Source of the DNA: a virus
Lineage: Duplodnaviria > Heunggongvirae > Uroviricota > Caudoviricetes
Length of the DNA stretch: 64,000 nt
IMG/VR virus record: IMGVR_UViG_3300032245_001714
Reading direction: 5' to 3' (one strand)
The translations under genes and the position numbers were made by a program. The notes under the pieces are model-generated. The model worked only from the letters and a program-made list of their open reading frames with translations, was not told the origin of the DNA and did no database searches. Numbering within the stretch: the stretch's first letter is position 1; each line of letters begins with the position of its first letter. Positions 1,191 to 57,814 of the stretch are shown here, one piece after another.

Positions 1191-1192
1191 CT

Positions 1193-4908: not shown

Positions 4909-4953
4909 TTTCATGCTCTATATATCATTGGATGTGGTGGGCGGGTCTCCTGG
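4909..4953. repeat. GC-rich dispersed intergenic repeat, copy 2
   Basis: tatatatcattggatgtggtgggcgggtctcctggggaattga. Confidence 0.55.
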
Positions 4954-5045
4954 GGAATTGAGTCCGGGAAGTCACCAGGTGGATGGGCTGGCCTCTCTAG
5001 AGAATCCCACAAAAAATCCCGGTTAGTTGAAGAATATATAAGGGC

Positions 5046-6041: not shown

Positions 6042-6082
6042 AGACTGTCTCAGAACCCCAGATTTATCGTTTCTCGTGTTCT

Positions 6083-6123
6083 GTGTATCATTGGCCGTGG
6101 GTGGGCTGGGCTCCTGAGAATTT
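6083..6123. repeat. GC-rich dispersed intergenic repeat, copy 3 (degenerate)
   Basis: gtgtatcattggccgtgggtgggctgggctcctgagaattt. Confidence 0.45.
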
Positions 6124-6128
6124 AGCGG

Positions 6129-6141
6129 GATATATAGGTCA
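6129..6141 (+). promoter_or_regulatory. GATATATAGG start-proximal motif (representative copy)
   Basis: gatatataggtca followed by ATG. Confidence 0.4.
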
Positions 6142-7392
6142 ATGAAACGTTTACTCACATATCAACTATTTAAAAATCGGTTCGGTCTAAGTCGAGAGCA
6201 GACCAAATGGCTAAACTCTGTTGCTCCTAACCGGTGGAGTTTAAATCCTCAAACCGGTCTCATTGACGTGGACGGAAGTTTTGATTGCAGGAGACAGCTA
6301 CTAACGGATTTCAAGGGATTGCGTTTCGGAGATGTGAGTGGTGATTTCAATTTTCAAGGCAACCAGATCACAAGTCTGGACGGAGCACCTGAGACTGTTG
6401 GTGGGGATTTCCGCTGTCAAGATAATCAGATCACAAGTCTGAAAGGAGCACCGGTGACCGTTAAAGGTAATTTCCTCTGTAGCCATAATCAGATCGCAAG
6501 TCTGGACGGAGCACCGGAGAGTGTTGGTAAGAGTTTCATCTGTAACACTAATAAACTCACAAGTCTGAAAGGAGCACCGCAGACTGTTGGTGGAGAGTTC
6601 GCTTGTTGCTTTAATGAGATCACAAGTCTGGAGGGAGCACCACAGAGTGTTACTTATTTCAATTGTGGCTACAATAAAAAACTCACAAGTCTGAAAGGAG
6701 CACCGGAGAGTGTTGATGGGGATTTCAATTGTGAGCGCTGTGGACTCACAAATCTGGACGGAGCACCCGAGACTGTTGGTGGGGATTTCAAATGTAACCA
6801 TAATCAGCTCACAAGTCTGAAAGGAGCACCAGGGACTGTTAAAGGTGATTTCAAATGTAACCATAATCAGCTCACAAGTCTGGAGGGAGCACCACAGACT
6901 GTTGGTGGGGATAATCCCGACCAGAGTGGGGATTTCGAATGTAACCATAATCAGCTCACAAGTCTAAAGGGAGCACCAGGGACTGTTAAAGGTGATTTCT
7001 TATGTAACGATAATCCACTCACAAGTCTGGAGGGCTCACCAGAAAAAGTTGGAAGATTTTATGCCGGTGAACTGGGAGATTATAATGATCCATTAAATTG
7101 GCCTGAAGGCTGGAACAAAGAGGATAAAGGGTTTACCAAAACTCTCGCATCCAAACTAAAAGAAATTGATGCTCTTGGATCTGATGCAGATAAGAGTAAA
7201 TTAATCTCTATGTTACTGTCACTGACAGAGCCTAATTTACTAGACTATCTGATATCTAATAACCTTTCCCCATCAGATAAGTTCACGATCTATGGAGCAA
7301 TTAAAGCCAATATTCCTGATGTTTGGAATAAGATTAAAGACAAAGTGGATCCTGACGGTGCCACTTCCGATTTGATGGACCTTGGGTTTTAA
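6142..7392 (+). CDS. LRR-like 21-aa repeat protein, family member 1 (about 11 repeats, conserved C-terminal domain ending DLMDLGF)
   Basis: Repeats follow GDFxCxxNxLTSLxGAPxTVx; N-terminus MKRLLTYQLF; GATATATAGG sits 3 nt before the ATG. Confidence 0.8.
   Translation: MKRLLTYQLFKNRFGLSREQTKWLNSVAPNRWSLNPQTGLIDVDGSFDCRRQLLTDFKGLRFGDVSGDFNFQGNQITSLDGAPETVGGDFRCQDNQITSLKGAPVTVKGNFLCSHNQIASLDGAPESVGKSFICNTNKLTSLKGAPQTVGGEFACCFNEITSLEGAPQSVTYFNCGYNKKLTSLKGAPESVDGDFNCERCGLTNLDGAPETVGGDFKCNHNQLTSLKGAPGTVKGDFKCNHNQLTSLEGAPQTVGGDNPDQSGDFECNHNQLTSLKGAPGTVKGDFLCNDNPLTSLEGSPEKVGRFYAGELGDYNDPLNWPEGWNKEDKGFTKTLASKLKEIDALGSDADKSKLISMLLSLTEPNLLDYLISNNLSPSDKFTIYGAIKANIPDVWNKIKDKVDPDGATSDLMDLGF
6340..7040 (+). 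repeat. tandem 63-bp DNA repeats inside the LRR-like gene
   Basis: Near-identical units such as aatcagatcacaagtctgaaaggagcacc...gttggtggggatttc recur about 11 times. Confidence 0.7.
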
Positions 7393-31218: not shown

Positions 31219-31632
31219 TTAGTAGTTTATTACGTGTACTGTTAATTTCCTTTCGTTAGCTAAATCAATCATATGCTTAGTCCCTCTGCTTTCTCCATCC
31301 CAGAAAGCTATTAACATATCAGCATACTCTGCCATGTCTTTATTCCTGAGATATCCAGCAGCTTTACCGTGTTTGTTCCAGTCAGCAGGAAATTGCTTAA
31401 CTGAAAATCCTCTGAGACTTGCATAGTGCTCTCCCATTTTATCGGCTCCTTTAGCAGTTCCGCTTACGATCTCAGCTTCTTTTACGTTTGCGAGTATTTC
31501 TTCGCACTTTGCATAAAGAAGTTGAAGATCTGAAAAACCTCTACTGCCTGCTATGATTACTTTCATCTTTATTAATTTACTGGCTTGTATAAAACTGGAG
31601 ATGTTCCATAAACTGGTAATTTCCCGTCCCAT
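31219..31632 (-). CDS. SLOG/DprA-like Rossmann-fold protein (DUF2493-like)
   Basis: VIIAGSRGFSD...IVSGTAKGADK...AFWDGESRGT pattern. Confidence 0.45.
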   Translation of the reverse strand: MGREITSLWNISSFIQASKLIKMKVIIAGSRGFSDLQLLYAKCEEILANVKEAEIVSGTAKGADKMGEHYASLRGFSVKQFPADWNKHGKAAGYLRNKDMAEYADMLIAFWDGESRGTKHMIDLANERKLTVHVINY

Positions 31633-32414
31633 TTATTGATCCACTCAAGTTGCAATAGCATTGGTGTAATGGTTTGTTGTTTTAGTCTATTCGCTTCAGC
31701 TTCAGCTTTTGCAGCGGTTAACATTGCTTCAGCTTTACCTTGAGCCTGTGCAACCTGTATCTTAGCCTGAGCTTCTGCTGTTTTAACTTGATTCTCTGCA
31801 GTAAGTGCAGTCTGAACTGCATTGTTCTTAGCCTCAATAGCTTTCTTAAAAGTTTCAGGATACCCTAAATTGGAGGTCAGCTGGCTAATTATAAATCCCT
31901 CTTTAAGAAGATTTGCATCTAATGTTGATCTAACTTTTGTTTCAAATTCTTGACGGTTAGAAATCAATTCTTCGGCAGTGTAAGCATTTGCTGTCATACG
32001 GAATGCGTCATAGATAGTTGTCTTTAAGAATCCCTCTTCTATTGACTCTAAAGTTCTACGATACTTCCCAAAGATGAAAGGTACCTTATCCCTTTGTACT
32101 GAATAGTTAATAATCGGGGATACGTGAAATTCGCTACCGTCTTTCGAGTTAACCACAAAAGAATTATCGATATCTTCTGTTTTTGTGTATTCCTTGTGTT
32201 GAATAAAGGTTGGGAATTCGTAGATTTTTGTTGAGATTGGGTTATAAAATACCCATCCTGTACACTCGGTGACGTCACCTACTCCTTTACCTGTTCCATA
32301 AAGATTAACTCTTACTCCGACATGTCCAGCGTCAATTCGCTCACATGAGTTGAATAAAAAAGTCATTAAAAAGATTCCGAGGATTACTCCTAATACTAAT
32401 TTTACTTTGTTCAT
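31572..32414 (-). CDS. SPFH/band-7 (prohibitin/HflC-like) lipoprotein
   Basis: A signal peptide with a Cys in FNSC, the SPFH core, and an Ala/Gln-rich coiled coil AEAQAKIQVAQAQGKAEA. Confidence 0.65.
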   Translation of the reverse strand: MNKVKLVLGVILGIFLMTFLFNSCERIDAGHVGVRVNLYGTGKGVGDVTECTGWVFYNPISTKIYEFPTFIQHKEYTKTEDIDNSFVVNSKDGSEFHVSPIINYSVQRDKVPFIFGKYRRTLESIEEGFLKTTIYDAFRMTANAYTAEELISNRQEFETKVRSTLDANLLKEGFIISQLTSNLGYPETFKKAIEAKNNAVQTALTAENQVKTAEAQAKIQVAQAQGKAEAMLTAAKAEAEANRLKQQTITPMLLQLEWINKWDGKLPVYGTSPVLYKPVN

Positions 32415-32667: not shown

Positions 32668-33174
32668 TTAATTGTTTGAAATGTTATTATTTTTAATTCC
32701 TAAGTATTCTAAAATTGATTCCCATCCGGGGAATTTCTCTGTTGCAAAATGCAGATGTTCTCCTTCGAAGTCTGCTACTCCGTTAGCAATCCGATCGTCT
32801 ATAAGATAATCACCTTTAACTAGACCTTTATTGTGACACAGTATTAATTTCTTTTTTGCAGAATCCCCAAGATACTTCTGAACCCATATTCTCTTTTCTG
32901 ACCATCCTTCAGGATTGCTCCAGGGTGGTGTACTTAAAATATAAGTCTCATACTTATCCTGTAGAGCAGCCCATGCATCAATAGCTCCTTCTATAGGTTC
33001 AAGATCCTTATAAGCATCGGGGTGTTTAAACAGACTGCTACCTTTTATCCCCTGAGCTTCTAATTCTTTAGCCCTCTTATCAAAGTCGCAGATAACCCCA
33101 TCCATGTCTATTAGAACAATAGGTTTTGTGATTTTGATGCTTCCTCTTAACCAGGGTTTTGATTCGCTGCTCAT
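32668..33174 (-). CDS. HAD-family 5'(3')-deoxyribonucleotidase-like protein
   Basis: Motif I DMDGVICDF. Confidence 0.6.
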   Translation of the reverse strand: MSSESKPWLRGSIKITKPIVLIDMDGVICDFDKRAKELEAQGIKGSSLFKHPDAYKDLEPIEGAIDAWAALQDKYETYILSTPPWSNPEGWSEKRIWVQKYLGDSAKKKLILCHNKGLVKGDYLIDDRIANGVADFEGEHLHFATEKFPGWESILEYLGIKNNNISNN

Positions 33175-36783: not shown

Positions 36784-37245
36784 ATGATTAGATTTATAGT
36801 TTTATTTTTTGTTTTTATTCCGTCTATAGCTTATTCCCAGATAAAAATAGACAAGGGAGGCAATTTTTGGGATCTTAGAGTTTCTGAGGCACTCCAGAAA
36901 ATCAAATCCATAGACAGCAACTACTATAAAACTGTAAATGATTACTGTCAGGAGATCTCATTTTGGAACGGACCATACTCAACAAACTCTGGTGATTCTC
37001 TAATAAGAGGAACCATCATAATTTCGGCCAAAGACATGAACATTGAAGACTTGGATAACATCTGTGCTGTGATAGTTCACGAGTCTCTCCATCTTAAACT
37101 TAGATCTTTAAGGATGTCATGTAGTGAGAATGAAGAGGAAGTCTTTTGTTATCAGTACGAAAGAGATTTTCTTCTTAAAGTTCCAGGGGTTAAAAGCTAT
37201 CTAATCAGACACGCTGAACTCCAGATTAAATACAGGTCTAATTAA
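36784..37245 (+). CDS. secreted small protein with an HExxH motif (153 aa)
   Basis: Signal peptide MIRFIVLFFVFIPSIAYS; VIVHESLHLK. Confidence 0.45.
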   Translation: MIRFIVLFFVFIPSIAYSQIKIDKGGNFWDLRVSEALQKIKSIDSNYYKTVNDYCQEISFWNGPYSTNSGDSLIRGTIIISAKDMNIEDLDNICAVIVHESLHLKLRSLRMSCSENEEEVFCYQYERDFLLKVPGVKSYLIRHAELQIKYRSN

Positions 37246-38272
37246 AACCAATACCTCTAATCCTCTGTTCCCATTCCCATGCACTCTTTAATATATCTAA
37301 AGTTGTTAGCTTAGCCTCCCAACCTAGAGTAGATTTAGCCTTCGATGGATCACACCAAACTTCTGCAGTATCTCCTGGTCTTCTGTCTGCTTGTTCACAG
37401 ACGATTAGATCAGGTTCAACATCTAAAACAAAGGTATCGATCATTTCATAAACAGATGTTCCCTTTCCTGTCCCGATATTAAAAACATCATAGGTGTGAA
37501 GTTCCTGTTTGTTCAGCCATTCCAATGAAGCTAAATGCGCTTGAGCCAGATCAGTTACATGAATATAATCGCGGATAGCCGATCCGTCTGGAGTTGGATA
37601 GTCAACCCCTGTAACTTTTATTGGCTGCTCATAGATACCTGCAGCTGCCTGAGTTATGATAGGAACGAGATTTCCTGGTTTACCTATTGGCATTTCACCA
37701 ATCCATCCAGAAGCATCCGCTCCAGCGGGATTGAAGTATCTGAGGGCTACTGATTTTAATTTTTTGATAGCTGTGCAATCTTCCAATATCCATTCACCAA
37801 CAACTTTTGAAGATCCGTAAGGAGTTGTACCCTTTGATATCGGATGTGATTCATTTATAGGCAGATACTGGGGTTGCCCATAAACGGTGCATGAACTTGA
37901 GAATATAAAATTCTTGATACATAGGATCTCGCACAGTCTGATGGAAGTGAGCAAGGAATCTATATTGTTTCGATAATAAGTCAAAGGATTTCCCACTGAC
38001 TCTGGAGAAGATTTGAGTGCAGCAAAATGAATAAGAGCGTCAGCCCTTATTGAATCTTCTCCTATGGTATCGTAGATATCTAGTGGAGAATCCAGTAGAG
38101 ATACCTTGTGAAATATAGGAGCTTTTCCTGCTGCTTTTTCTATCCTCTCAATCGATTCGTATGACGAATTAATTAAAGAATCCAATATGATTACTTCATG
38201 CCCTGCACGGAGAGCTTCTACTGCTGTATGAGAACCAATATACCCTGCTCCTCCTGTTATAATTATTTTCAT
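37238..38272 (-). CDS. galE: UDP-glucose 4-epimerase
   Basis: TGGAGYIGSH, catalytic YGSSK, FNPAGA; about 344 aa, colinear with GalE. Confidence 0.8.
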   Translation of the reverse strand: MKIIITGGAGYIGSHTAVEALRAGHEVIILDSLINSSYESIERIEKAAGKAPIFHKVSLLDSPLDIYDTIGEDSIRADALIHFAALKSSPESVGNPLTYYRNNIDSLLTSIRLCEILCIKNFIFSSSCTVYGQPQYLPINESHPISKGTTPYGSSKVVGEWILEDCTAIKKLKSVALRYFNPAGADASGWIGEMPIGKPGNLVPIITQAAAGIYEQPIKVTGVDYPTPDGSAIRDYIHVTDLAQAHLASLEWLNKQELHTYDVFNIGTGKGTSVYEMIDTFVLDVEPDLIVCEQADRRPGDTAEVWCDPSKAKSTLGWEAKLTTLDILKSAWEWEQRIRGIGFN

Positions 38273-40812: not shown

Positions 40813-41907
40813 TTATCCTGCTTTAAGTAAAAAGTTATTAGAAATGGCTTTAAAAGATATTGATTTATCTTTATTCCTAATAACCAATCCTTCTCTTTCT
40901 GTCTGTTCGTTCAACCTAGATTTACCCTCTGCTTGAATTAAAACCTCCTCTATGGTCGAAGGAAGTTTATAATCGTAATAAATCACCGGAACGAGCTCTA
41001 ATGGCTTATCGTCAACATTTATCTTTTCTAGTATTCTAATCATATCATCAAGTCCCAAATACTCCCGGGTGTCTATGTTGAACATGTTGAATATTTTAAC
41101 CGTTTGACCTTTAATCTTATATGGATTTCCCTGTATCCCTTCGCCGATGAGTTCTCCCTGAATCGCGTAGTTACCTTCAAGAGTTCCCAATTTCTCTTCG
41201 ATGAAAAGTTCTCTGGCAACTTTCCAAAACGTATTTTCCTCTGTTTCTAATAGCTCTAAATTTCTTGAACAAACTCCAAACACACCATTATTAAAATAAT
41301 ATGTTGCAGAGCTTCCGTCAAGTTTTTCTGTTACGTAATAGTGCTTATCACGCATGCTATCGAATTCTTTAGTCATGTTCTGGATTCTCTCCTCGTCGGT
41401 CTTTCTGATAAATCCTGGGAAATAGCCTTTTACCTTTCCTGCTAATGAAGCTGGGATCGGAGGTTCATATTTTAATATCCCAAGATAGTCAGTAAGATCC
41501 ATCCCCTCCTCTATAATCATTGCATCATCATAAGGACCTAATTGTAACTGATTTCCCCAAGGCTGCTCTGAAATCCCTACTACCATTTCTTCAAACTCTT
41601 TACTGTTTAAAACTGAAAGAGGAAGACAAAGTCCCTGAGAGATTTGTCCTCGGAGTTTTATTGTCTTTAATCTAAATCCCTCTTTATCTCCCATTTTTTT
41701 AAACGAAGATTTTCTTAGAAATTCAAACTCTTCCCTCACAGGTAAGAAAGAATCTATCTCGAAATAGACACAAAGGTCTCCTTCGTTAAACTCCCCTTTC
41801 TTTGAGACAACCTTCCATGAATTCACGGTTACTATTTCTATTGCGTCCGCTCCCCCGATAGGAAGAATTTTTCCAATTCTCTGTATCGAAGCTAATTTTC
41901 TTTCCAT
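40813..41907 (-). CDS. ATP-dependent RNA ligase, DRB0094/Rnl5-like
   Basis: KxDG adenylation motif TEKLDGSS; N-terminus RKLASIQRIGKILPIGGADAIEIVTVNSWKVVSKKGEFNEGDLCVYFEIDSFLP, typical of this ligase family. Confidence 0.55.
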   Translation of the reverse strand: MERKLASIQRIGKILPIGGADAIEIVTVNSWKVVSKKGEFNEGDLCVYFEIDSFLPVREEFEFLRKSSFKKMGDKEGFRLKTIKLRGQISQGLCLPLSVLNSKEFEEMVVGISEQPWGNQLQLGPYDDAMIIEEGMDLTDYLGILKYEPPIPASLAGKVKGYFPGFIRKTDEERIQNMTKEFDSMRDKHYYVTEKLDGSSATYYFNNGVFGVCSRNLELLETEENTFWKVARELFIEEKLGTLEGNYAIQGELIGEGIQGNPYKIKGQTVKIFNMFNIDTREYLGLDDMIRILEKINVDDKPLELVPVIYYDYKLPSTIEEVLIQAEGKSRLNEQTEREGLVIRNKDKSISFKAISNNFLLKAG

Positions 41908-42543: not shown

Positions 42544-43053
42544 AAGGCTGATGATGATTCTTCAGCATATGGACCATGGGATGCCGACTATAAAAGCGGC
42601 AAAGCAGGCAAGGGCAAACCAGTCCCAACTAAGACCAGCAAATACACTAAAAAATACAAGGAGATGTTTGGTGAGTCAGAGGACTTCGAGATCGACAATA
42701 TAGTGAGTTTTAATGACTATAGCGAGCCTCAAAACGTTTTTGAAGAGATTGTCTTGGAAGACGAGAGTATCACAGCAGACGTGCTAGAAGAAGCGTCTAA
42801 GATGGGTAAGAACAGTCCCGTTTATAAAGCTCTTAAAAAGAAATCGGATAAAACAGGATTTCCTCTAGGGATTCTAAGACAAGTTTGGGGTAGGGGGTAC
42901 GCAGCTTGGAAAGTTGGTCATATTCCCGGAACTACCCCTCAGCAGTGGGCTATGGCTAGGGTTAACTCTTTTTTAACGGGAGGTAAAACAACAAAGATGG
43001 GAGATAAAGCTCTTTATAAGAGAGCTAAGGCTAACAGAAAAGATAAGAATTAG
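42472..43053 (+). CDS. hypothetical Lys-rich protein (193 aa)
   Basis: Overlaps the convergent upstream gene by 72 nt on the opposite strand; protein-like sequence. Confidence 0.4.
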   Translation: MKYPKKYLTTNPNIMKREIKKHGHKADDDSSAYGPWDADYKSGKAGKGKPVPTKTSKYTKKYKEMFGESEDFEIDNIVSFNDYSEPQNVFEEIVLEDESITADVLEEASKMGKNSPVYKALKKKSDKTGFPLGILRQVWGRGYAAWKVGHIPGTTPQQWAMARVNSFLTGGKTTKMGDKALYKRAKANRKDKN

Positions 43054-44474
43054 GTAATTTTTTTCTGGTAATCTATAACGGAATATCCATCCGGCTCATG
43101 TACAAGAGGTGCTGTTGTAGCAAATATAGGAACTCTCATATCGTAATTCCAATAAAGCCAAATATCCCATGCATGCCATCCGGTATTAGCTAATTTATTC
43201 TGAATGTTTTCTTTTTCTGATTTAAAGACCATATAACAGTGAGCACAGAGAAAATGGTCTATCTGTTTGTAATCACCCATATAGATTGCAGTGTCACTAA
43301 CCGAAGCTCTCGATGCCATGCCGTAGCTAACAGCTCCGAATGTAAACATAGCTCCAGATCTAGCTAACCCGAATTCATAAGCATCGTATATCTTCTTGGT
43401 AAATTCTTCTGGCCTTAGATCATATACAACGTCGCTTTCAACAATAATCAGTGCATCATAATTTCCAAAATCCTCTACAGCTGATCTGTGAGCAACGTAA
43501 GCACCATAATGCCCATATGAAAGCACAGGAGGATTGTTAATAAAATCTTTGGATCGATCTATTATTTCTGGCTGTGCACAATTCTCTGATGGTAATTCCG
43601 TTCTATTAACAACGGAATACCTCTGGGAGTAGCAAGCAAAGTTACTTGCTATTTTTTCGAATGCAGAAACCGAAGCTTTCTGTTTAGCCATAACAGAATC
43701 CCATTTATCAGAAGGGATATCCTGTGGCTGACTTGGATCCAGTAACAGATGACAAATCTTTATCCTAGGTTTCTTTTTATTCATCCATTTATCATCGAAA
43801 ACTTTTTTCATACCTAGAGTCATCCCTAATTCATCATCCAAAAGATCTTTACTGCTTTCAGTTAGGTGGTGAACGATTGAAGATTTTATGAGAGCATGTT
43901 TAATCCCGTGATGTTTAAGATTCTCTGCATAATCATTATCCTGATACCAGTGTAAAAATCTTTCGTCCCATTTACCTATTCTATCAATAACAGATTTTTT
44001 CATCAGAATACACCATCCACAAACACCAAATCCAACTTCATAACTTTCATTAATCTCTGAACTAGCCCATCCTGTATAATATTTATTATGGAAATCTGGT
44101 TCAAATGGACTGAAAGAATCTATATCGGGTCTAGATCTAGAAGCCTCCAATATTCTATCAAACCACCCTGTTTCGAATATAAGATCGTTATTTATGATTA
44201 ATAACCAGTCTGAATTTTCGGTGTGTGTCATTCCTATATTAAGAAATCTATTATACGCAAACTTCTCATTAGGGGTTATGTATTTTATCGAATTATTAAC
44301 ATTTCCCGCTTTAATCTCTGAGTATTCCCACCTTGGTGAATTTGACGATTCAACTAAAACTAAATTGAATTCAGTTTGAGGCTGAGATTCAAATAGAGTC
44401 GATATTGTTTTTGAACACATGTCAAAATAACGGACATCATCAGTTTTGGTTAAACATATAACATCAATCTTCAT
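43050..44474 (-). CDS. glycosyltransferase-like protein (474 aa)
   Basis: GT-A-like N-terminal region LVLVESSNSP...LIINNDLIFE. Confidence 0.45.
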   Translation of the reverse strand: MKIDVICLTKTDDVRYFDMCSKTISTLFESQPQTEFNLVLVESSNSPRWEYSEIKAGNVNNSIKYITPNEKFAYNRFLNIGMTHTENSDWLLIINNDLIFETGWFDRILEASRSRPDIDSFSPFEPDFHNKYYTGWASSEINESYEVGFGVCGWCILMKKSVIDRIGKWDERFLHWYQDNDYAENLKHHGIKHALIKSSIVHHLTESSKDLLDDELGMTLGMKKVFDDKWMNKKKPRIKICHLLLDPSQPQDIPSDKWDSVMAKQKASVSAFEKIASNFACYSQRYSVVNRTELPSENCAQPEIIDRSKDFINNPPVLSYGHYGAYVAHRSAVEDFGNYDALIIVESDVVYDLRPEEFTKKIYDAYEFGLARSGAMFTFGAVSYGMASRASVSDTAIYMGDYKQIDHFLCAHCYMVFKSEKENIQNKLANTGWHAWDIWLYWNYDMRVPIFATTAPLVHEPDGYSVIDYQKKIT

Positions 44475-45030: not shown

Positions 45031-46080
45031 TTACTTTTTAAATCTATTTAACGAATTGGTTGTTATCATATTCCATTTTGCATATCCGATAAATTCGTTT
45101 AGATTCATTGCGTCACTGTAGCTCATAGCAGAGCTAAGATAACTTTTGAAGTTATCGACCCATCCATTCAAAGTATACTCAACAGGCTGCATTCTAGTTA
45201 CCCCCTCACTTGTTTTTAGAATCTCTTTTCCCATAGCTCTCTGAGCTTCCTTGGTGCTCATTCCTCTAAATTTCTTAAACATACGGGTTCCGTATGAGAA
45301 GAGTTTTTCAGTTTCTTGCGAGTATTGATTAATCCTATCCCCAGGTTCTGTCCAGCCTTCTTTTTTATTATTAGCTAGATATGTTTCCCCTGCGCTCTCT
45401 AGAGCTTTGTTTAGAATGGAACCAAGCATAACATAGTCAGCTCCAAGAGCAAGAGCTTTAATGATATCAGAGTAGCTTTTGAATCCCCCATCTGCCACGA
45501 TCTTAGCAGGGGTTTCTAAAGCCAGACTCACATCATAGCACTCATTAATCAATGAAGCCATCGGATAACCAACACCTGTTTGTACTGTTGTTAAACACCC
45601 TCCGCCGTTTCCTATACCAACCCTGATGTAATCTGCACCAGCCACAGAAAATGCTCTGTATGTTTCAGGATGTGCAACGTTGCCCACCATAAGAACTAGA
45701 TGACTTCCGTACATCTCCTTAGCTCTTCTAGTTATATCTAGAAGTCTTTGCATATGTCCATTAGCGATGTCTATCAGAATATGATGATATCCATCTCTTT
45801 TGTTGTTAATAAAAAGATCTTCAAATTGATCCATGCCTAAAGATCTAAAAAAATCTGGAAATGTGTTGTCTATACTTTCTAAAGATTCCGTTCTTGGCAT
45901 TATAACATTGATACCAGCTTTGAGAAATAGATCTTTATTCTCTCCGCTAACAACGGTGTCCATTGGAGCGGTAAAAAGAGGCAATCTACCATATTCATAA
46001 AAAACATCCACTTGTTTTCTTGAATGAATTCTAGAAATTGGAGCAGGCTGAATTAGGATATCGTCGAAGTCGAATTTCAT
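45031..46080 (-). CDS. GMP reductase / IMP dehydrogenase-family protein
   Basis: FDDILIQP...APMDTV...GIGNGGGCLTTVQTGVGYP, catalytic Cys loop; 349 aa, matching GuaC in length. Confidence 0.7.
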   Translation of the reverse strand: MKFDFDDILIQPAPISRIHSRKQVDVFYEYGRLPLFTAPMDTVVSGENKDLFLKAGINVIMPRTESLESIDNTFPDFFRSLGMDQFEDLFINNKRDGYHHILIDIANGHMQRLLDITRRAKEMYGSHLVLMVGNVAHPETYRAFSVAGADYIRVGIGNGGGCLTTVQTGVGYPMASLINECYDVSLALETPAKIVADGGFKSYSDIIKALALGADYVMLGSILNKALESAGETYLANNKKEGWTEPGDRINQYSQETEKLFSYGTRMFKKFRGMSTKEAQRAMGKEILKTSEGVTRMQPVEYTLNGWVDNFKSYLSSAMSYSDAMNLNEFIGYAKWNMITTNSLNRFKK

Positions 46081-46625: not shown

Positions 46626-47030
46626 TTAATAGTGAAGGTCTAAATATAAATTTTCAGTGTCATCTTTGTACTTTACTGCGCACCATGCAGGATGATATTG
46701 GTCTTTAGCTTGATTAAGTTCATCCTCCGTAAAAAGCTTTAAGTTGTCTTTTTTCATATTGGGATATTCTTCTAAATTATCATACTTTCCTGATTTTATA
46801 TCCTCATTAAACTGCAATCCCCAGTGATAATGTTCTCCCTCTTTCAGTACGACTCCCCATCCATTATTTTCAAAATAAGTGTCCTCGATTCTCTGGATAA
46901 GAACTAGGCCTTCATCCGGCATATCTAGGATAGATTTCTTTAACTCGCCTACTGTTAGATAACCGTTTTTCTTATACGAGGGAAGATCTTCTTTTTTAAT
47001 CTCTCTTGGAATTTTTCTAACCTTATCCAT
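46626..47030 (-). CDS. hypothetical protein (134 aa)
   Basis: ORF track entry. Confidence 0.5.
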   Translation of the reverse strand: MDKVRKIPREIKKEDLPSYKKNGYLTVGELKKSILDMPDEGLVLIQRIEDTYFENNGWGVVLKEGEHYHWGLQFNEDIKSGKYDNLEEYPNMKKDNLKLFTEDELNQAKDQYHPAWCAVKYKDDTENLYLDLHY

Positions 47031-47031: not shown

Positions 47032-47436
47032 TTAACTTGAGAATTTTTCGTATGATTGTAGATATTCTGAAATGTTTCTTCCTCCTGCTGGATTCATCGA
47101 ATGAACTCTATATTTAGGAAGTTTTATCCCTTTATCCGTACAATAATCAACTAACCATTTTGCACAATCTAAACCTGTCTTCTCTTTAAAAGACTCGTAG
47201 TTTTTATTATACTCCTCCATCCCCTTGTACATGTCCTGTGAGTAGTGTTCGTCTGCAAGATCATGATCGAAAGAAATAAACTCAGGAAGTCCTTGAGCAT
47301 TAATAATTTCTACGAATTCGTCATAGCTTCTTGCAATCGTCCATTCCCAGTTTGTATACATTGCTCCGTCTAACATGTACCTCTGGCAATCCGCCGGGTA
47401 TCTAAAATCGTCTAAAAAAAGATTATATTGTGTCAT
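47032..47436 (-). CDS. hypothetical protein (134 aa)
   Basis: ORF track entry. Confidence 0.5.
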   Translation of the reverse strand: MTQYNLFLDDFRYPADCQRYMLDGAMYTNWEWTIARSYDEFVEIINAQGLPEFISFDHDLADEHYSQDMYKGMEEYNKNYESFKEKTGLDCAKWLVDYCTDKGIKLPKYRVHSMNPAGGRNISEYLQSYEKFSS

Positions 47437-47813
47437 TTTATTATTATGAATGCTTTTTGTGATTTGATCACGGTTAGGTGAAAGAGATAGTCCACGAGTC
47501 GGTATTTTTCTTTCTGGTGTTTTATATCCATCGAACCCAGTATAGTTCCCACCTGAAGTAGGTTGCTTTTGATCTTTTTATTAAAAACCACCTCGGCTTT
47601 ATTAACCCCTGTGAGAAGAGTTTCGTTAACATAATCAAGCATGAGTTTTAGATTTTTTTCTGTTCTGTGCTCGAAAGCGTATTTGCAATAAAGATGCACA
47701 GTCAACCTTTCAACCTCTTTTGATAGCAGCTCGAGAATATGCGAAACCTCACTCTCGGTTAGTCCGTAGTGTTTATACAGATCCTTTTCTATCTCAATGT
47801 TGATTCTCACCAA
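47433..47813 (-). CDS. hypothetical protein (126 aa)
   Basis: ORF track entry. Confidence 0.45.
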   Translation of the reverse strand: MVRINIEIEKDLYKHYGLTESEVSHILELLSKEVERLTVHLYCKYAFEHRTEKNLKLMLDYVNETLLTGVNKAEVVFNKKIKSNLLQVGTILGSMDIKHQKEKYRLVDYLFHLTVIKSQKAFIIIK

Positions 47814-47814: not shown

Positions 47815-48264
47815 TTAAAGTTTAACCTCGAACCTCTGTCTCATTTTTTCTAGAGTCTCTGCTGGAACGTTGTGTACATTGTTGTTTCCATGACGGTTTT
47901 CAACGATCAGAGAAACCACCTGATATTGATATTTCTTAGCAAGGTCTAAATAAGCCTGCATCTCCCATTCCTGAGTGAACGTGTTTGACACTACGATCTC
48001 CGGGTAATACTGGGGATTAACTTGGTGATCTTTCATTCTGGTCTCAACTTCGTTTCTGCACCATTCGTGAGCTTCTTTCAACCTTGATGCTTCAAAGTTG
48101 TATTCACCAGTTTCCTTGTTGTGAAAAAACTTATCAGCCTCGCAGATTGCATAGTCATTCCAGATGTGCTTTGCAAAAGTTGATTTACCAGATCCAGGTA
48201 TTCCTCTCACAAGAAATAGTGTTGGATTTAATGTGCTGTATCCTTCGTTTCTTACGTTTTCCAT
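47815..48264 (-). CDS. polynucleotide 5'-kinase-like P-loop kinase (AAA_33 / T4 Pnk kinase-domain-like)
   Basis: GIPGSGKSTFAK Walker A; CEADKFF; VVSNTF, compared with T4 Pnk GCPGSGKST...RDDYR...SDTNL. Confidence 0.6.
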   Translation of the reverse strand: MENVRNEGYSTLNPTLFLVRGIPGSGKSTFAKHIWNDYAICEADKFFHNKETGEYNFEASRLKEAHEWCRNEVETRMKDHQVNPQYYPEIVVSNTFTQEWEMQAYLDLAKKYQYQVVSLIVENRHGNNNVHNVPAETLEKMRQRFEVKL

Positions 48265-48422
48265 ATTATTCTTTTATTCTTTTGGTTCTCCAGAACCAAT
48301 TACCTCTTAAATGTTTTCTGCCCTCTGGATAAAATTGGGGTTGATCAAAAGCGATCCACCACAATTCCAATTTCCAAATAAAAAATCTTCTTTCTGAAAC
48401 ATTGTATTCTAGCATCTTATTT

Positions 48423-49115
48423 CTATTTAGGCGTTGTAAAATAATAAAAATCAGTCACGTTACCACAAAAATCTATGACACTGAAAGTGCTCCTTATCTT
48501 CCCGTGAAGCTGTAGATTTTTTTTTCGATCATCGGGGTCATGTGTTTCACACGCGATCTTATCAATCCTAGAAAGGATGGATGGACTTAATGAATCAAAG
48601 ACATCATACTCAAATCCCTCGATGTCTATTTTTAAAAAATCTATTTTTTCTAGCTGATAAATCTCCATTATTTTTTTAATAGTAAACTCGATTGGATTTT
48701 TTCTGTCTGTCCATACTCTTCCCGATGGAATATAGGTATCCGCTGGGATTTCACCGGTGACTATGGAGTTACAAAAATAAACGTTATCTCTGTCCGAGTT
48801 ATTTTCAACCAGACAAGAATAATGTTCAGGACTACCTTCGATAGAGATAACTTTCTTAGCAATTCTAGAAGCTCCATGTGTAAATAATCCTATGTTTGCA
48901 CCCAAATCAACAACCACCGATCCCGGTTCGATCACGCAGTCCCACATTTGGTAACAGCAATTTTTTGGTGAATAACTAAAATAATAATTCTCCTTGTAGA
49001 AAAAATCATATTCCCAGCAGGAATCCAATTCTTTAACATGATCAAAAGTTTTATATCCATAGGTATTTGTAGCACGATCCCAATATTTCCACTTTTTACC
49101 TTCTATGTGTTCCAT
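48423..49115 (-). CDS. FkbM-family methyltransferase
   Basis: VVDLGANIGLFT, SIEGSPEHYSCLVEN, IDFLKIDIEGFEYDVF, IACETH. Confidence 0.7.
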   Translation of the reverse strand: MEHIEGKKWKYWDRATNTYGYKTFDHVKELDSCWEYDFFYKENYYFSYSPKNCCYQMWDCVIEPGSVVVDLGANIGLFTHGASRIAKKVISIEGSPEHYSCLVENNSDRDNVYFCNSIVTGEIPADTYIPSGRVWTDRKNPIEFTIKKIMEIYQLEKIDFLKIDIEGFEYDVFDSLSPSILSRIDKIACETHDPDDRKKNLQLHGKIRSTFSVIDFCGNVTDFYYFTTPK

Positions 49116-49137
49116 TTTCTATTTTTTTATTTTTTTT

Positions 49138-49779
49138 TTATTCTTCCGTGTGATGATCTTTAGGTAGAACCAGGTGCCTAACAGGTCTACCCTTCATTAT
49201 TTTCAATATCTCATTTAAGCTATAAGGCTCCAGATTGTTTCCGTCTACTCCAACGTCCATTGCTTGTCCTTCGTGGATCTTTAATCTGGGCGGTAGATGA
49301 ACATGTCCATGTAAATGAGGAACCCCTTTATTCATTCCATCCCAACTTGCTATTGGGAAGTGACAGCATACGAATTGGTACTTACCCGTCTCTTTACCCT
49401 CTGGCCTACGGATATCTATAATATCATAGCTACTAACGTGCTTGAAGTACCCCTGTACCCCCTCCTTATTATTTCTAATGTGATGATCGTGATTTCCTAA
49501 AAATAGAATAATGTTTTTGCATACTATTTTATTTCTGAACTCGATAATAGATTCGAATCCACCAAAGCTCCAGTCTCCCATATGAACCAAATAATCGTCC
49601 GGTCCAACGACCGAGTTTATTCCTGCTACTATAGCATCATTCATTTCACCTAGAGAGTGAAAATCCCGTGTACCTCTTCCTTTAGGCCAGTTTGAAACTC
49701 CACGACAAATATTTTGGTGCGAAAAATGCGAATCGGAGGTGAAAAATATGTTCTGATTTTTTTCTAATATAATTTTCAT
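49138..49779 (-). CDS. calcineurin-like metallophosphoesterase
   Basis: TSDSHF (DxH), GDWSFGG, GNHDHH, GHVH. Confidence 0.75.
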   Translation of the reverse strand: MKIILEKNQNIFFTSDSHFSHQNICRGVSNWPKGRGTRDFHSLGEMNDAIVAGINSVVGPDDYLVHMGDWSFGGFESIIEFRNKIVCKNIILFLGNHDHHIRNNKEGVQGYFKHVSSYDIIDIRRPEGKETGKYQFVCCHFPIASWDGMNKGVPHLHGHVHLPPRLKIHEGQAMDVGVDGNNLEPYSLNEILKIMKGRPVRHLVLPKDHHTEE

Positions 49780-49782
49780 TTT

Positions 49783-50922
49783 TTAATCTTTTTTAATCCA
49801 TTTTGAATCCACTGGTATTTCTTCCTCTCTATTCCAAAATGGCTTTTGATACTTTGGTTTTACTATCTTCCAGATTATATGATCGTATTTCTTTCCGTCC
49901 CACATAGCAAAACATATGGATCTTATGCTGGGCTCAACATTACAAAATTCTAGATGTTCAGCAAATTCTTTCTTAGTAGGCTCATTCTCTCGATCCCAAT
50001 ATCTTCCATATCTAAAATACTCATAGATCTTTTCCGCTCTTTCCTCGACTTTACATCGGTGATATTCTAGACTGTGTATTGTTTTCTTAACCCACTTGTC
50101 AAATTCGTCAGGAACTCTTTCTAGAAATTCTTCAATGTTTCTTCCTTCTTTTAAAAGCTCCCAGATGTCGACATTCGAGAAATTGGTCAATAGTCGATGC
50201 AATCTAACATAATCTTCGCCTTTGATCTTCATTCTAAGTCCGGATTTGAATTTAACAACAAATCCCTCAGATTCTCCGTCTATCATTTTCTTAAGCTTCT
50301 TATAATCGTCTATCCCATCGTACTTCTTAACCATCTTAAATCCCAAGTTGTTATATAAATTTACGAATCTAATACCCTCTAAATGTATGCTATTATGGTG
50401 GATTCTAAGTTCATAACCATCTTTGTTATCAATTACCCCAAGAAGTATTAAGTCCTCATAGTCATAGTTGCACACGATCCTGTTTTCGGGATAGATGATC
50501 TCGAACAGATAGGTAAATCCTGGGATCAGTCTCTCATATCTGTATTTTTTTAGGATTTCTCTACCCCTAATTGCCTGCTCAGATGCAAAAGATCCTCTGG
50601 TCGCTAAGTGCCACTCATCGGCATAATGGAAAAGTATGCCTAGAGACCCGTCCAATTTTTCGAAAACCTCGAATTCCTCATTAGGTATTTCCTCTGGCTT
50701 ATGCTCCTCCATGTTAAAAAACTTGGGGAATGGTTTAGCAATAACATTTCCCTCCCGGTCTAAAACAGTGCCTCTCATATTTAAAGTGATCTCGTCCCAA
50801 GACTCCGTGAACTGACATTCCCTTGAATAATTATAGATATCAAGCGGTAATGTCGGGTGTGGATTCCTTTCTAAAAGACCCCTCTGGATATAGGCGTTAA
50901 GAGTGTTTAAATCGTATTTCAT
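49783..50922 (-). CDS. RNA ligase, T4 Rnl1-like
   Basis: Motif I EKLDGSL, compared with T4 RnlA KEDGSL; 379 aa against T4 Rnl1 at 374 aa. Confidence 0.6.
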   Translation of the reverse strand: MKYDLNTLNAYIQRGLLERNPHPTLPLDIYNYSRECQFTESWDEITLNMRGTVLDREGNVIAKPFPKFFNMEEHKPEEIPNEEFEVFEKLDGSLGILFHYADEWHLATRGSFASEQAIRGREILKKYRYERLIPGFTYLFEIIYPENRIVCNYDYEDLILLGVIDNKDGYELRIHHNSIHLEGIRFVNLYNNLGFKMVKKYDGIDDYKKLKKMIDGESEGFVVKFKSGLRMKIKGEDYVRLHRLLTNFSNVDIWELLKEGRNIEEFLERVPDEFDKWVKKTIHSLEYHRCKVEERAEKIYEYFRYGRYWDRENEPTKKEFAEHLEFCNVEPSIRSICFAMWDGKKYDHIIWKIVKPKYQKPFWNREEEIPVDSKWIKKD

Positions 50923-51088: not shown

Positions 51089-52639
51089 ATGGGTAAGAAA
51101 ATTTACAACTTTGATGACTTCGTTAACGAGTCATATGTTAGCGAGGGATTATTTTCCTGGTTCAAGAAAAACGTAATGGACCGACTAACTGGATGGACAA
51201 AAAGCTTTTATCAGGCTTTAGAAAATGGCCTAATCAAAACAATTCCAAGTGGACCTAAAAAAGGTAAGCCTGTAGCTATGCTATTTGTTCCTGAAAATGG
51301 ACCTATAGATAAGCAAATAGCAGAATTCTACGGAACAAAAGCTAATGAATCCCAGGAGATTGAAGAAGCTGTGGTTCCCTTAGAATACACTGAAGAAGAT
51401 CAAAGCGTTAGAAATATCAATGCTGAAGATCTTATGGAAGAGATAATGGAGCTTTACGAAGCTAAAGTTTCCGGTGGAAGAGCAAAACCCATATTTATAT
51501 ACGGAGCACCTGGTATCGGTAAAACCCAGATAGTTGGACAAGCCGCTACATCTTTAGGCGTTCCTCTTTTAAATCTTGACCTACAATTTATGGGACCTGA
51601 AGATTTCATCGGGGTTCCTGTTCAAGTGGACATAAAAAAACCGGAATTCTCTGAAGTAGAGGATGAAACAACTGGTGAGAAAACGATGGTGGTAAAAGAT
51701 TACGGTGCTGGTTTTACAAGATCAAATCCTCCTTCTATTTTGCCTAGGGATAATGGAGCTAATGGTAAAGGTGGTATTATATTCATGGACGAAGCAAATA
51801 GAGCAAACCCTATTGTTTTAAGATCTCTAATGCAATTCGTTCAAATGGGTAGAATTGGAGATTATCAGCTTCCTACAAAATGGATTATAGTAGCTGCTGG
51901 TAATAGACCTGCAGAAGCAGAAGTTGCAGAATTTGACTTTGCGTTTGCTGATCGTTTCACAATTGTGAATTACGTTCCTGAATTGGGAATAGATCCAAGC
52001 GGAGCAATCACGGGGGGTTGGGCTAAATGGGCTTCTTCATCAGGAAAGATCCTTCCTGAATTAATTTACTTCCTTGCTGATAACAGAGAGTTATTCCACA
52101 GATTGGACACAGAAAAGAAAGTGCTAAACTACCCAACTCCTAGATCTTGGGCAGATGGAGCATTAGTTCTGAATGACTATATGAGAAACAAGGGACTTAG
52201 CTCTTGGAGAGACGTTCCGGCTCAAAAGATTAAGAACATCTTCTTCGATCAGGTTGGACCTCAAGCAGCTGGAAAATTTGCTGACTTCCTAGACATTCTA
52301 AGAAAAGCATCTGATTCTGATATCGAAGAAATGCTTACTGATCCAGATGGTGCTAGAATTATTCCTGAATTCAAGAAGGAGAAAAGATTCTTATTTGGTC
52401 TTATCCAAACACTTATAAATAAAGTACCAGACGGTGATGCACAGAAGCTATTGAGCATAGTTAAGTACATTAGCAGATATGGTCAATATGAAGTTCTTAC
52501 GTGGCTTCTAAAGAGAATTTACGACAAATTCCCAGAATTCGGAAAATTTGAGGCTTCTTACAAGGATGAGCCAGGATGGGAATACAGAAAAGAGGCAGTT
52601 GAGATAGTTAGACAAGGAAAGAAAGAACAAGGACTATAA
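51089..52639 (+). CDS. MoxR/CbbQ-like AAA+ ATPase
   Basis: GAPGIGKTQ Walker A, IIFMDEANRA Walker B, AAGNRP sensor; N-terminus MGKKIYNFDDFVNES. Confidence 0.75.
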   Translation: MGKKIYNFDDFVNESYVSEGLFSWFKKNVMDRLTGWTKSFYQALENGLIKTIPSGPKKGKPVAMLFVPENGPIDKQIAEFYGTKANESQEIEEAVVPLEYTEEDQSVRNINAEDLMEEIMELYEAKVSGGRAKPIFIYGAPGIGKTQIVGQAATSLGVPLLNLDLQFMGPEDFIGVPVQVDIKKPEFSEVEDETTGEKTMVVKDYGAGFTRSNPPSILPRDNGANGKGGIIFMDEANRANPIVLRSLMQFVQMGRIGDYQLPTKWIIVAAGNRPAEAEVAEFDFAFADRFTIVNYVPELGIDPSGAITGGWAKWASSSGKILPELIYFLADNRELFHRLDTEKKVLNYPTPRSWADGALVLNDYMRNKGLSSWRDVPAQKIKNIFFDQVGPQAAGKFADFLDILRKASDSDIEEMLTDPDGARIIPEFKKEKRFLFGLIQTLINKVPDGDAQKLLSIVKYISRYGQYEVLTWLLKRIYDKFPEFGKFEASYKDEPGWEYRKEAVEIVRQGKKEQGL

Positions 52640-52660
52640 AACACTAAAATCACTAAACTG

Positions 52661-53611
52661 ATGGAAAGATCATTTAAAAATAAATCCCTCATCGAGAGAG
52701 CAATAACGAACTTTGACGAGTTCGTAAGAATTAAGGTGGTAGAATCAGTGGATAACCCCGAAGATTACGCTCAGGAAGATTACACCGAGGTGAACAGAAA
52801 AATCAGAAAGATTATAATCTGGCTTAGTATCAATAAAGGATTTTATGCTGAACTAATGGCAAACCTAGATATTTATGGATCTGATGAAATTAATCCTAAA
52901 ACAATGTGCACAAACGGGATAGAAATTATATTCCATCCTGAATTTGTGACTAAGCAGAAAGAGGAGGCTTTAAGACTTGTTCTTGCACACGAGCTTCTAC
53001 ACTGTATAGGTAAGCACCAAGAAAGAAGAGGGACTAGAGACCCTAAAGGTTGGAATATAGCATGTGATTATGCTATCAATCCTATACTTGAGGGAGAGCC
53101 GGGGTTCGAATGGCCAGTTGACGAGACGGGTCAGAAAATGGGACTTTACGAGGAAAAATACGAAGGCATGTCAGCAGAAGATATTTACGATCTTCTAATA
53201 GAGGAAGGAGTTTTAAACCCTGACGGAAAGCCTAAATCTTCAAAAATGGCAAAAAGTGCAGAACTTGGTGAAGTTGTTGACGAGGATTCTGAAGTACCTG
53301 GACCTGGTCAGGGTATGGATATTCAGGTTTCAGACGACGATGAACCAAACGGCGGACAAAACGGTAGCGGAGACGATGGCGATGAAGGTGATGAAGAAGG
53401 AGATAAACCAGGAAACGGTAGCGGTGATGAGGGAGACGAAGAAGGAGAGGGAGATGGACCGGGAAATAGTCCAGGAAATAAACCTTCGGATAAGCCTGGC
53501 AATAACCAACAACAATCCCAACTCCCTAGGGTGGGACAAAAGGTTAGGTTAAGTGACGGAAGAGAAGCTGTTATCAAAAAGGTTTATCCTAACGGAGATA
53601 TAGACGTTTAA
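52661..53611 (+). CDS. DUF2201_N-like putative metallopeptidase (HExxH) with an acidic Gly/Asp/Glu-rich repetitive tail
   Basis: LAHELLHCIGKH; tail NGSGDDGDEGDEEGDKPGNGSGDEGDEEGEGDGPGN. Confidence 0.55.
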   Translation: MERSFKNKSLIERAITNFDEFVRIKVVESVDNPEDYAQEDYTEVNRKIRKIIIWLSINKGFYAELMANLDIYGSDEINPKTMCTNGIEIIFHPEFVTKQKEEALRLVLAHELLHCIGKHQERRGTRDPKGWNIACDYAINPILEGEPGFEWPVDETGQKMGLYEEKYEGMSAEDIYDLLIEEGVLNPDGKPKSSKMAKSAELGEVVDEDSEVPGPGQGMDIQVSDDDEPNGGQNGSGDDGDEGDEEGDKPGNGSGDEGDEEGEGDGPGNSPGNKPSDKPGNNQQQSQLPRVGQKVRLSDGREAVIKKVYPNGDIDV

Positions 53612-53628
53612 AATTTAAAACTCAAAAC

Positions 53629-54567
53629 ATGTTTGTAAAAAAAGGAGAATATGCTGTAATAGCTCAAGCCCAAGATTTATCTGGAGGCCAGAAATCACCA
53701 GATGACGGTAAAAAAGGTGGAAATGTTGCTATATCTAAAAAAACAATACAGATGGAGGATATTCCTCTAGTTGGACAGGAAACACCCGGAGCTAAAACAA
53801 CTTCTGATTTAGGTGGTAAACAAATAAAAACTAAGGTTTCTGAGTATACCGGTAAAAAGAAAAGCAGAATACATAAAGGTAAAATAGATTGGGATTCTGC
53901 AGCAATGAGAGCTTTAGGTAGAGCCACATCTTCTGTTTCTTCAAAGATTAAAAGATTGATCGATACTCTATCGTCTACGAAACCTTTGGTTAACTGGAAA
54001 ATGGAGCTTAAGAAATTTTTCGATAGCACATTTAATAAACAAGATTGGGTTCTTCCGAATAAAAGATTTGTTGCTAGAGGAGAATATCTATACGGAAGAA
54101 AGAATATAGGATCTGACACATTAAAAACGATAGTGGCAGCAGTGGATACGTCTGGCTCAATATCTCAGGAACAATCAAGAACATTCGTAACTGAAGTTAT
54201 GCACTTGGTTAAAATGTTTGATGCTGATAAAACCTACATCATTTACTGTAGTGATGATATAGATAATGTTGATATCATTAAGAAAGGAGGTCAGCCGGAT
54301 TTCTCTTTATGGGCAACAACAGGTGGTAATGCTAAAGGGTTTATCCCTCCTTTTCAATACGTTGAAAAGAACAATATCAAACCATCAGTTTTCATATATC
54401 TAACAGATACTGGCGGTGAAATGCCAGATCCTAAAAAATATGGAATTCCTAAGTACATTAAAAAAGTGATTTGGTTTATATGTTCTCCAACTATGTATAA
54501 TCCTCCATCATTCGGTAAAATACTATTCGCTCCGGCGTCAGCAATTGCACCATGGAAAAAGAAATAA
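53629..54567 (+). CDS. VWA-domain protein
   Basis: MIDAS motif VAAVDTSGSIS. Confidence 0.6.
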   Translation: MFVKKGEYAVIAQAQDLSGGQKSPDDGKKGGNVAISKKTIQMEDIPLVGQETPGAKTTSDLGGKQIKTKVSEYTGKKKSRIHKGKIDWDSAAMRALGRATSSVSSKIKRLIDTLSSTKPLVNWKMELKKFFDSTFNKQDWVLPNKRFVARGEYLYGRKNIGSDTLKTIVAAVDTSGSISQEQSRTFVTEVMHLVKMFDADKTYIIYCSDDIDNVDIIKKGGQPDFSLWATTGGNAKGFIPPFQYVEKNNIKPSVFIYLTDTGGEMPDPKKYGIPKYIKKVIWFICSPTMYNPPSFGKILFAPASAIAPWKKK

Positions 54568-57697: not shown

Positions 57698-57721
57698 TAG
57701 TATTATTCAAAGAACTTTTTG

Positions 57722-57814
57722 TAGTCAGGACAGGATTCGAACCTGTGACCTTTGTCTTTTGGTTCCGCCGTAAGCGGATTACTCACCAACACGCTACCAT
57801 TGCGCCACCTGACT
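57722..57814 (-). tRNA. tRNA-like gene E4, atypical (93 nt)
   Basis: Reverse complement: AGTCAGG-TG-GCGC-AATGGTA-GCGT; stem TTGGT/ACCAA encloses 21 nt containing a TCCGC-TTACG-GCGGA hairpin; T arm ACAGG-TTCGAAT-CCTGT; acceptor CCTGACT; discriminator A. Confidence 0.5.

Follow-up and report, generated by a model that had tools for sequence, protein, structure and literature searches.

The window analyzed in this study, a 64,000-nucleotide stretch of DNA from a virus of the Caudoviricetes (IMG/VR record IMGVR_UViG_3300032245_001714), carries on its minus strand, between positions 46626 and 50922, a cassette of eight genes that includes an RNA ligase, a metallophosphoesterase and a P-loop kinase. 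Because homology, catalytic motifs and synteny are all conserved, a role of this cassette in the healing and sealing of RNA ends is well supported, and we infer from the same material the individual activities of its proteins and its substrate in vivo. A methyltransferase gene of the FkbM family lies among the repair genes, and we consider it probable that this gene is a laterally acquired accessory that stands outside the repair pathway.

Genes and motifs of the repair cassette

The genes of the cassette, from 50922 downwards, are as follows.

49783..50922, minus strand: T4 Rnl1-type ATP-dependent RNA ligase, 379 amino acids, the predicted sealing enzyme (Pfam, PHROG, motifs)
49138..49779, minus strand: binuclear metallophosphoesterase (MPE), 213 amino acids (phrog_547, five MPE motifs)
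48423..49115, minus strand: FkbM-family S-adenosylmethionine (SAM)-dependent methyltransferase (MT), 230 amino acids (PF05050, TIGR01444)
48266..48415, minus strand: orf49, a conserved protein of 49 amino acids, at the same position upstream of the kinase in relatives
47815..48264, minus strand: P-loop kinase, 149 amino acids (AAA_33, phrog_2071, phrog_505)
47433..47813, minus strand: orf126, a conserved protein of 126 amino acids with a TTG start, directly upstream of the cREC gene with a 4-nucleotide overlap
47032..47436, minus strand: cREC domain protein, 134 amino acids (PF20274, phrog_1479)
46626..47030, minus strand: orf134, a conserved protein of 134 amino acids, directly downstream of the cREC gene

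An initial annotation of this region had named a ligase, a calcineurin-type phosphoesterase, an FkbM-family methyltransferase and a kinase. All four open reading frames (ORFs) are present on the minus strand with exactly the coordinates given there, and family profiles and/or motifs bear out each identity. The stretch 48265-48422, which had been taken for a gap, actually contains orf49, a gene overlooked at that time. As for the three small genes then listed as unknown, that at 47032-47436 encodes a cREC domain, while orf126 and orf134 are indeed without an assigned function.

The ligase matched the Pfam family RNA_lig_T4_1 (PF09511) with 53 bits (cut-off 28.3; 5.3e-14) and phrog_562 with 4.9e-65 across residues 15-361. 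The phmmer alignment with the T4 Rnl1 structure 2C5U spans residues 46-260 and places K89 of KLDGS (89-93; K89-LDGSL) on the motif I lysine of T4 Rnl1. NMRG (48-51), PKFFN (66-70), FEII (140-143), EGFV (219-222) and KIKG (232-235) match their T4 counterparts in the same structure, and motifs III, IV and V, together with the upstream R and K/F residues, are conserved relative to T4 Rnl1. Since the protein scored 69.2 bits against TIGR02308 (T4 RnlA), below the equivalog cut-off of 242.25, it is a distant member of the Rnl1 family rather than an equivalog, and it is predicted to act as an ATP-dependent RNA sealing enzyme of the Rnl1 type. The closest ligase homologues in cultured phages adjoin full-length conventional Pnk genes.

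The MPE scored 18.8 bits with the Pfam Metallophos profile (PF00149), below the cut-off of 21.5, and matched phrog_547, annotated as “phosphoesterase”, with 2.6e-42. All five metal-binding motifs are present: SDSHF (15-19), GD (68-69, within MGDW 67-70), GNHD (95-98), H140 (CCHFP) and HGHVH (157-161). Its nearest solved structure is 1XM7 (aq_1665; 1e-5), and the protein is predicted to heal 2′,3′-cyclic-phosphate or 3′-phosphate ends. The window probably derives from a large phage of the Bacteroidota; such a host is suggested by the Flavobacterium and Cellulophaga phages, in which the nearest cultured counterparts of the MPE occur. In Flavobacterium phage immuto (L091, region 4880-6651), the closest of these counterparts (58.5% identity) comes immediately after four clustered tRNA genes, and the ±6 kb examined around it contain no ligase.

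The kinase matched AAA_33 (7.8e-12) and phrog_2071 (5.4e-44), and aligned with the first 141 positions of phrog_505, “polynucleotide kinase”, with 2.4e-8; its match to TIGR04075, the N-terminus of Pnkp, was weak (21 bits against an equivalog cut-off of 750). A Walker A motif, GIPGSGKST, lies at residues 21-29, and D44 is a candidate catalytic aspartate because of its spacing. The protein is predicted to be a polynucleotide 5′-OH kinase. That kinase and phosphatase are encoded by separate genes, as initially proposed, is confirmed: the phosphatase is the MPE, and the kinase protein consists of a 149-amino-acid domain only.

The cREC protein matched PF20274 (cREC_REC) with 76.6 bits (cut-off 27; 2.5e-21) and phrog_1479 with 1.5e-26. 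It carries the aspartate pairs FLDD (7-10) and FDHD (56-59) as well as HSMNP (112-116), and its receiver-type acidic residues are intact and conserved in relatives. The context of the gene is that of ligase and kinase genes and not that of a two-component system. cREC domains have been predicted to hydrolyse 2′,3′-cyclic phosphates, and an operonic link with RNA ligases has been described (PMC7824862, PMC9503650). The cREC protein of the window is thus predicted to open 2′,3′-cyclic phosphates.

Consecutive genes of the cassette are tightly packed in the ORF listing, with spacers of 0-22 nucleotides or overlaps, which argues for co-transcription and against expression at different times. Because the MT gene is flanked by spacers of only 22 and 7 nucleotides, it is very likely co-transcribed with the repair genes. 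A scan for sigma-70 promoters and terminators returned fewer sites than shuffled sequence did, and the probable Bacteroidota host uses other promoters.

Conservation of the cassette and its relation to known repair systems

To place the cassette among its relatives, IMG/VR was searched with the ligase, which retrieved 55 loci (46 non-identical, 39-83% identity), and the window proteins were compared with these loci (numbered L006, L007 and so on) by tblastn. Many of them lie on contigs of 100-373 kb and represent uncultured large phages. The MPE gene stands alongside the ligase in 35 of the 46 non-identical loci and the kinase gene near it in 31; ligase, MPE and kinase occur together in 29, and in 24 of the 31 loci that offer at least 4 kb on either side of the ligase. 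At least 12 of the 46 have a cREC gene, a count obtained under a strict threshold and therefore possibly too low. Two arrangements of the genes are found repeatedly: ligase, MPE, kinase and then cREC in the closest relatives, and MPE, kinase and then ligase in others. The synteny in 29 of 46 loci sustains the initial proposal of an RNA end-healing and sealing cassette, to which the cREC gene also belongs. A megablast search of the cassette against cultured phages gave no match, and a PADLOC scan returned nothing relevant.

The smaller genes are conserved to varying degrees. The orf49 protein is 74-76% identical in L012 and L015 and 91% in L084 and L085, two short contigs of a sister lineage, with a ratio of nonsynonymous to synonymous substitution rates (dN/dS) of 0.055 in the codon alignment of the window with that lineage. 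Copies of the cREC protein are 62-67% identical in the most closely related cassettes. The orf126 protein matched no Pfam or PHROG family, and a homologue search yielded only a near-identical copy; tblastn of the related loci detected homologues of 29-34% identity at the same position in L015 and L020-22/25, and position-equivalent proteins exist in L017, L011 and L012. For orf134, a conserved protein without detectable homology, a confident fold was predicted that has no solved structural relative.

In many related cassettes, a conserved protein of about 250 amino acids, ending in ...INHGDALWDGMINWFR, is encoded between the kinase and orf126/cREC (L007:10422-11186, L011:10153-10896, L015:10494-11240, L017:10207-10947, L020:10599-11360 and L084:2263-3033). 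This protein has no Pfam match and no counterpart in the window, and it may be an additional part of the cassette.

Iyer, Burroughs, Aravind and colleagues (Viruses 2021, PMC7824862; Viruses 2022, PMC9503650) have already reported neighbourhoods of medium-sized and large phages in which a T4-like tRNA ligase, cREC and a nucleotide kinase occur together, in some cases joined by a calcineurin-like phosphoesterase; Escherichia phage V5 and Proteus phage Mydo represent this type. Like them, the window unites these four domain families in a single operon-like unit, with the same predicted logic of healing and sealing. It differs in that its cassette showed no sirtuin or MazG gene, and in that the MPE, occasional in those neighbourhoods, is near-constant here (35 of 46 loci). 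Further differences are orf49, orf126, orf134 and, in relatives, the protein of about 250 amino acids, as well as the lineage-specific FkbM insert. The cassette therefore belongs to a type known from comparative genomics, to which this lineage has added what looks like a passenger gene.

With T4 Pnk and Rnl1, the cassette has in common a ligase of the Rnl1 family that retains every nucleotidyltransferase motif, and a P-loop 5′ kinase akin to polynucleotide kinases. In T4, however, the phosphatase is a HAD/DxDxT domain within the kinase protein, whereas here it is a separate binuclear MPE; the ligase is a distant family member, and a cREC gene is added. With the bacterial Pnkp/Hen1 and Pnkp1-Rnl-Hen1 systems it shares the three chemistries, a calcineurin-type 2′,3′-phosphatase and an adjacent methyltransferase gene. 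Unlike bacterial Pnkp, however, it distributes these chemistries over three genes instead of one polypeptide and uses an Rnl1-type ligase; its methyltransferase is of the FkbM family and, in contrast to Hen1, is not conserved with the cassette. The fused kinase-phosphoesterase-ligase phage protein of phrog_8238 matches the kinase, MPE and ligase of the window in that order.

From these comparisons, a course of repair can be proposed. A host ribonuclease, cutting for instance within the anticodon loop of a tRNA, would leave 2′,3′-cyclic-phosphate and 5′-OH ends; cREC and/or the MPE would open the cyclic phosphate and remove the 3′-terminal phosphate, the P-loop kinase would phosphorylate the 5′-OH, and the Rnl1-type ligase would seal the break. 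It is improbable that the cassette serves instead, outside counter-defence, in phage RNA maturation, in DNA-end processing or in the breakdown by cREC and the MPE of a signal derived from cyclic nucleotides or ADP-ribose. Such a role would be in keeping with the proposal that cREC also processes molecules of the cyclic ADP-ribose (cADPR) type (PMC7824862, PMC9503650), with the position of the immuto homologue of the MPE beside tRNA genes and apart from any ligase in the stretch examined, and with the single doubtful tRNA gene of the window. The linkage of kinase, phosphoesterase and Rnl1-type ligase, however, matches the logic of T4 Pnk/Rnl1 and bacterial Pnkp, and some relatives have recruited a second RNA ligase into the cassette, both of which speak for repair. 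If repair with an accessory methyltransferase is the right explanation, the locus adds to the instances of a phage RNA-repair module that is widespread and has been predicted by computation, and it offers a compact eight-gene test bed for that module.

An FkbM-family methyltransferase in a variable slot

The MT exceeded the cut-offs of both FkbM models (PF05050, 49.9 bits against 22.7; TIGR01444, 65.3 bits against 37.7). It contains the motifs VDLGANIG (69-76) and KIDIEGFE (162-169; of the form KIDIEGxE), and none of the residues D70, G72, G76, K162, D164 and E169 varies among 39 homologues. Its AlphaFold2 model has a pLDDT of 92. When PDB sequences were searched with the family profile, the FkbM structure 2PY6 aligned over profile positions 47-197, and all other matches were limited to SAM-motif stretches. 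Comparison of folds does not discriminate between substrates. In a database of 5.8 billion proteins, the MT falls into a small, phage-only subfamily of about 220-240 amino acids with a conserved N-terminal extension, which sets it apart within the FkbM family. No Hen1 model of NCBIfam or Pfam matched at E 0.01-0.1 or better, the matches being only FkbM, CbiT and a weak TRM5. With FkbM above both cut-offs and no Hen1 family match, the enzyme is of a non-Hen1 kind, as the initial annotation had stated. The TRM5/TYW2 match (E 0.002, residues 46-105) and hints of FtsJ in homologues of the MT were considered as evidence of an RNA substrate and rejected, since both cover only the SAM-binding region.

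Characterized members of the FkbM family O-methylate sugars and polyketide hydroxyls. The MT, too, most probably O-methylates a sugar-type hydroxyl group of its substrate.

The MT was present in none of the 46 related cassettes, as judged by tblastn and by a hidden Markov model built from 39 family members and run against 2,202 ORFs; the same model recovered the MT of the window as a positive control. In the DNA alignment, the gene appears as a clean insertion of 0.7 kb between the stop codon of the MPE gene and the start codon of orf49. Relatives fill the slot between MPE and kinase differently: L006-8, which are equally close, have a gene of 57 amino acids there, L012 has orf49 only and L015 has both. 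The MT occupies this slot only in the lineage of the window and in the sister lineage L084/L085, whose copy (P0002) is 84% identical to it.

To examine the history of the insert, codon alignments of the window with L084/L085 were analyzed. The synonymous divergence (dS) was 0.31 for the MT (dN/dS 0.235) and 0.64 for orf49, whereas it reached 1.45 for the MPE and was saturated for ligase and kinase (proportion of synonymous differences, pS, above 0.8). At the nucleotide level, the two lineages are 83-97% identical (mostly 85% or more) from 49106 to 48296 and 70-86% identical (mostly 70-83%) beyond this stretch. Because dS is far below that of the flanks and nucleotide identity is higher, the most economical interpretation is an exchange of the MT-orf49 block between lineages that postdates the divergence of the flanking genes. 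The block is under purifying selection.

Such slots carry varied cargo in related cassettes: SPFH/Band 7, a second RNA ligase, dCMP deaminase, NT5C nucleotidase, an Asp/Arg-hydroxylase-like protein, a 2-oxoglutarate (2OG)-Fe(II) oxygenase and an HNH-NUMOD homing endonuclease, along with numerous small genes that lack an assignment. The homing endonuclease, between cREC and ligase in L045 (L045:3688-4551), indicates that mobile elements target these cassettes. Since the slots gather such mixed cargo, adjacency in one lineage is weak evidence of a shared function, and adjacency in a single genome should not be taken as membership in a pathway.

Nine further members of the MT subfamily were looked up, so that 11 independent contexts were examined overall. 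Their identity to the MT and their neighbours are as follows.

P0004, 64%: DNA polymerase B and ribonucleotide reductase, with a family 2 glycosyltransferase (GT2) about 5.5 kb downstream
P0012, 43%: GT2 glycosyltransferase directly adjacent; topoisomerase, UvdE
P0007, 43%: topoisomerase, UvdE
P0011 and P0017, 48% and 44%: ResIII/DEAD helicases
P0016, 43%: ERCC4-like gene, terminase
P0015, 43%: PIN-PhoH; GT2 glycosyltransferase directly adjacent
P0006, 48%: uninformative neighbours
P0013, 44%: cREC gene 0.6 kb away, with no ligase or kinase within 10 kb

A metallophosphoesterase near P0013 was considered as a relative of the window MPE and rejected, as tblastn and phmmer detected no relation; for this reason only the proximity of cREC counts at that locus.

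Given these results, the reading that we favour is that the MT came by lateral exchange into a variable slot, which separates the phosphoesterase gene from the kinase gene, and that purifying selection would have retained it there because of a separate function. Several observations weigh against it. The gene runs in the same direction as the repair genes and almost certainly shares a transcript with them, and its placement has been kept in two lineages under purifying selection. The cREC gene 0.6 kb from P0013 (44% identity) is closer than chance would explain for a rare domain, nucleic-acid enzymes dominate the neighbourhoods of the subfamily, and a ribose 2′-OH is a chemically plausible target for an FkbM-type enzyme. 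In addition, the activities of all cassette proteins are predictions, and the cREC family is experimentally uncharacterized (PMC9503650).

The initial annotation had cast the MT as an embedded, Hen1-like step of the pathway. On this proposal, the enzyme would be a functional analogue of Hen1 that 2′-O-methylates the healed 3′ end before ligation, so that the junction resists re-cleavage. Its position amid healing genes with spacers of 22 and 7 nucleotides, which makes co-expression likely, would fit, as would its maintenance in L084/L085 at a dN/dS of 0.235, the cREC gene near P0013 and the weak similarity of the SAM region to TRM5/TYW2 and, in homologues, to FtsJ. There is also a phage precedent, as XacN1 encodes both Pnkp and Hen1 (PMC5852040). 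Nevertheless, the conserved genomic linkage to healing and sealing genes that characterizes Hen1 is absent from all 46 related cassettes, the association is confined to the window and one sister lineage, where dS is low, and nine other members of the subfamily have unrelated neighbourhoods; the proposal is not borne out by these data, and we regard it as unlikely. Rather unlikely, too, is a reading in which the FkbM subfamily was recruited at least once, perhaps twice (in the lineages of the window and of P0013), as an RNA-modifying add-on to end-healing enzymes. Such an add-on would methylate the healed 3′-terminal ribose or an anticodon-loop nucleotide and thereby render the repaired tRNA resistant to the host nuclease, and orf126 and orf134 would, as part of the same rather unlikely reading, be further repair factors. 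If the MT does act on RNA, it would represent a second, independent invention of repair with immunization, by an unrelated methyltransferase family.

An O-methyltransferase of glycans or sugar nucleotides, working with sugar-modification genes of the phage and merely landed in the cassette, is an explanation that we can put forward tentatively. FkbM family membership points to it, as do the GT2 genes adjacent to P0012 and P0015 and downstream of P0004. The gene array of the window holds a glycosyltransferase, another SAM methyltransferase and a GDP-mannose dehydratase/epimerase (listed below), and more distant viral FkbM relatives form clusters of paralogues with no repair genes nearby. However, most nearest neighbours within the subfamily are enzymes of DNA and nucleotides and not glycosyltransferases.

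The second RNA ligase and other genes of the window

On the same strand as the cassette lie the following genes.

45031-46080, minus strand: enzyme resembling inosine monophosphate dehydrogenase (IMPDH)/GMP reductase, with conserved copies immediately downstream of the cassettes of L006-8 and L017
44480-45025, minus strand: small SAM methyltransferase (phrog_32762)
43050-44474, minus strand: glycosyltransferase (PHROG match only)
40813..41907, minus strand: second RNA ligase, 364 amino acids, with an N-terminal OB fold and an Rnl2-superfamily nucleotidyltransferase domain, loosely associated with the cassette
37238-38272, minus strand: GDP-mannose 4,6-dehydratase/epimerase

Apart from the ligase, these genes make up a set for sugar and nucleotide metabolism. 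A conceivable role of the MT in sugar methylation would have plausible partners in the glycosyltransferase, the small SAM methyltransferase and the GDP-mannose dehydratase/epimerase nearby. The second RNA ligase matched PF21189 (PHA02142 OB-fold; 4.5e-40), PF09414 (RNA_ligase; 5.6e-25) and phrog_968 (2.5e-81), and its architecture resembles that of DraRnl/NgrRnl. At four places (counted together, not split by locus), a gene cluster homologous to it is inserted among the core genes of a cassette, L019 (L019:6659-7678) being one of them. Like T4, the phage of the window therefore has two RNA ligases.

Genes for SPFH/Band 7 and NT5C nucleotidase proteins are found at 31572-32414 and 32668-33174 (minus strand). 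Because the same families also occupy cassette slots in L034 and L043, gene shuffling within one early-gene region is suggested.

Divergent from the ligase, 51089-54567 on the plus strand encodes a MoxR/AAA_5-like ATPase of 516 amino acids, a DUF2201_N protein and a DUF2201 VWA-like protein. The DUF2201_N protein is a putative metallopeptidase with a long acidic tail rich in Gly, Asp and Glu, and the set looks like an ATPase-VWA-peptidase trio.

ARAGORN reported a single tRNA gene, a 94-nucleotide tRNA-Asp at 57721-57814 (minus strand) with the unusual anticodon ATC. Judging from its length and anticodon, it could be an atypical tRNA, a tRNA with an intron or a false call. At the left edge of the window, positions 1-4000 are a compositional outlier with a G+C content of 0.49-0.53, compared with about 0.34-0.40 over most of the window, and a DUF2452 protein is encoded within this segment at 2941-3351.

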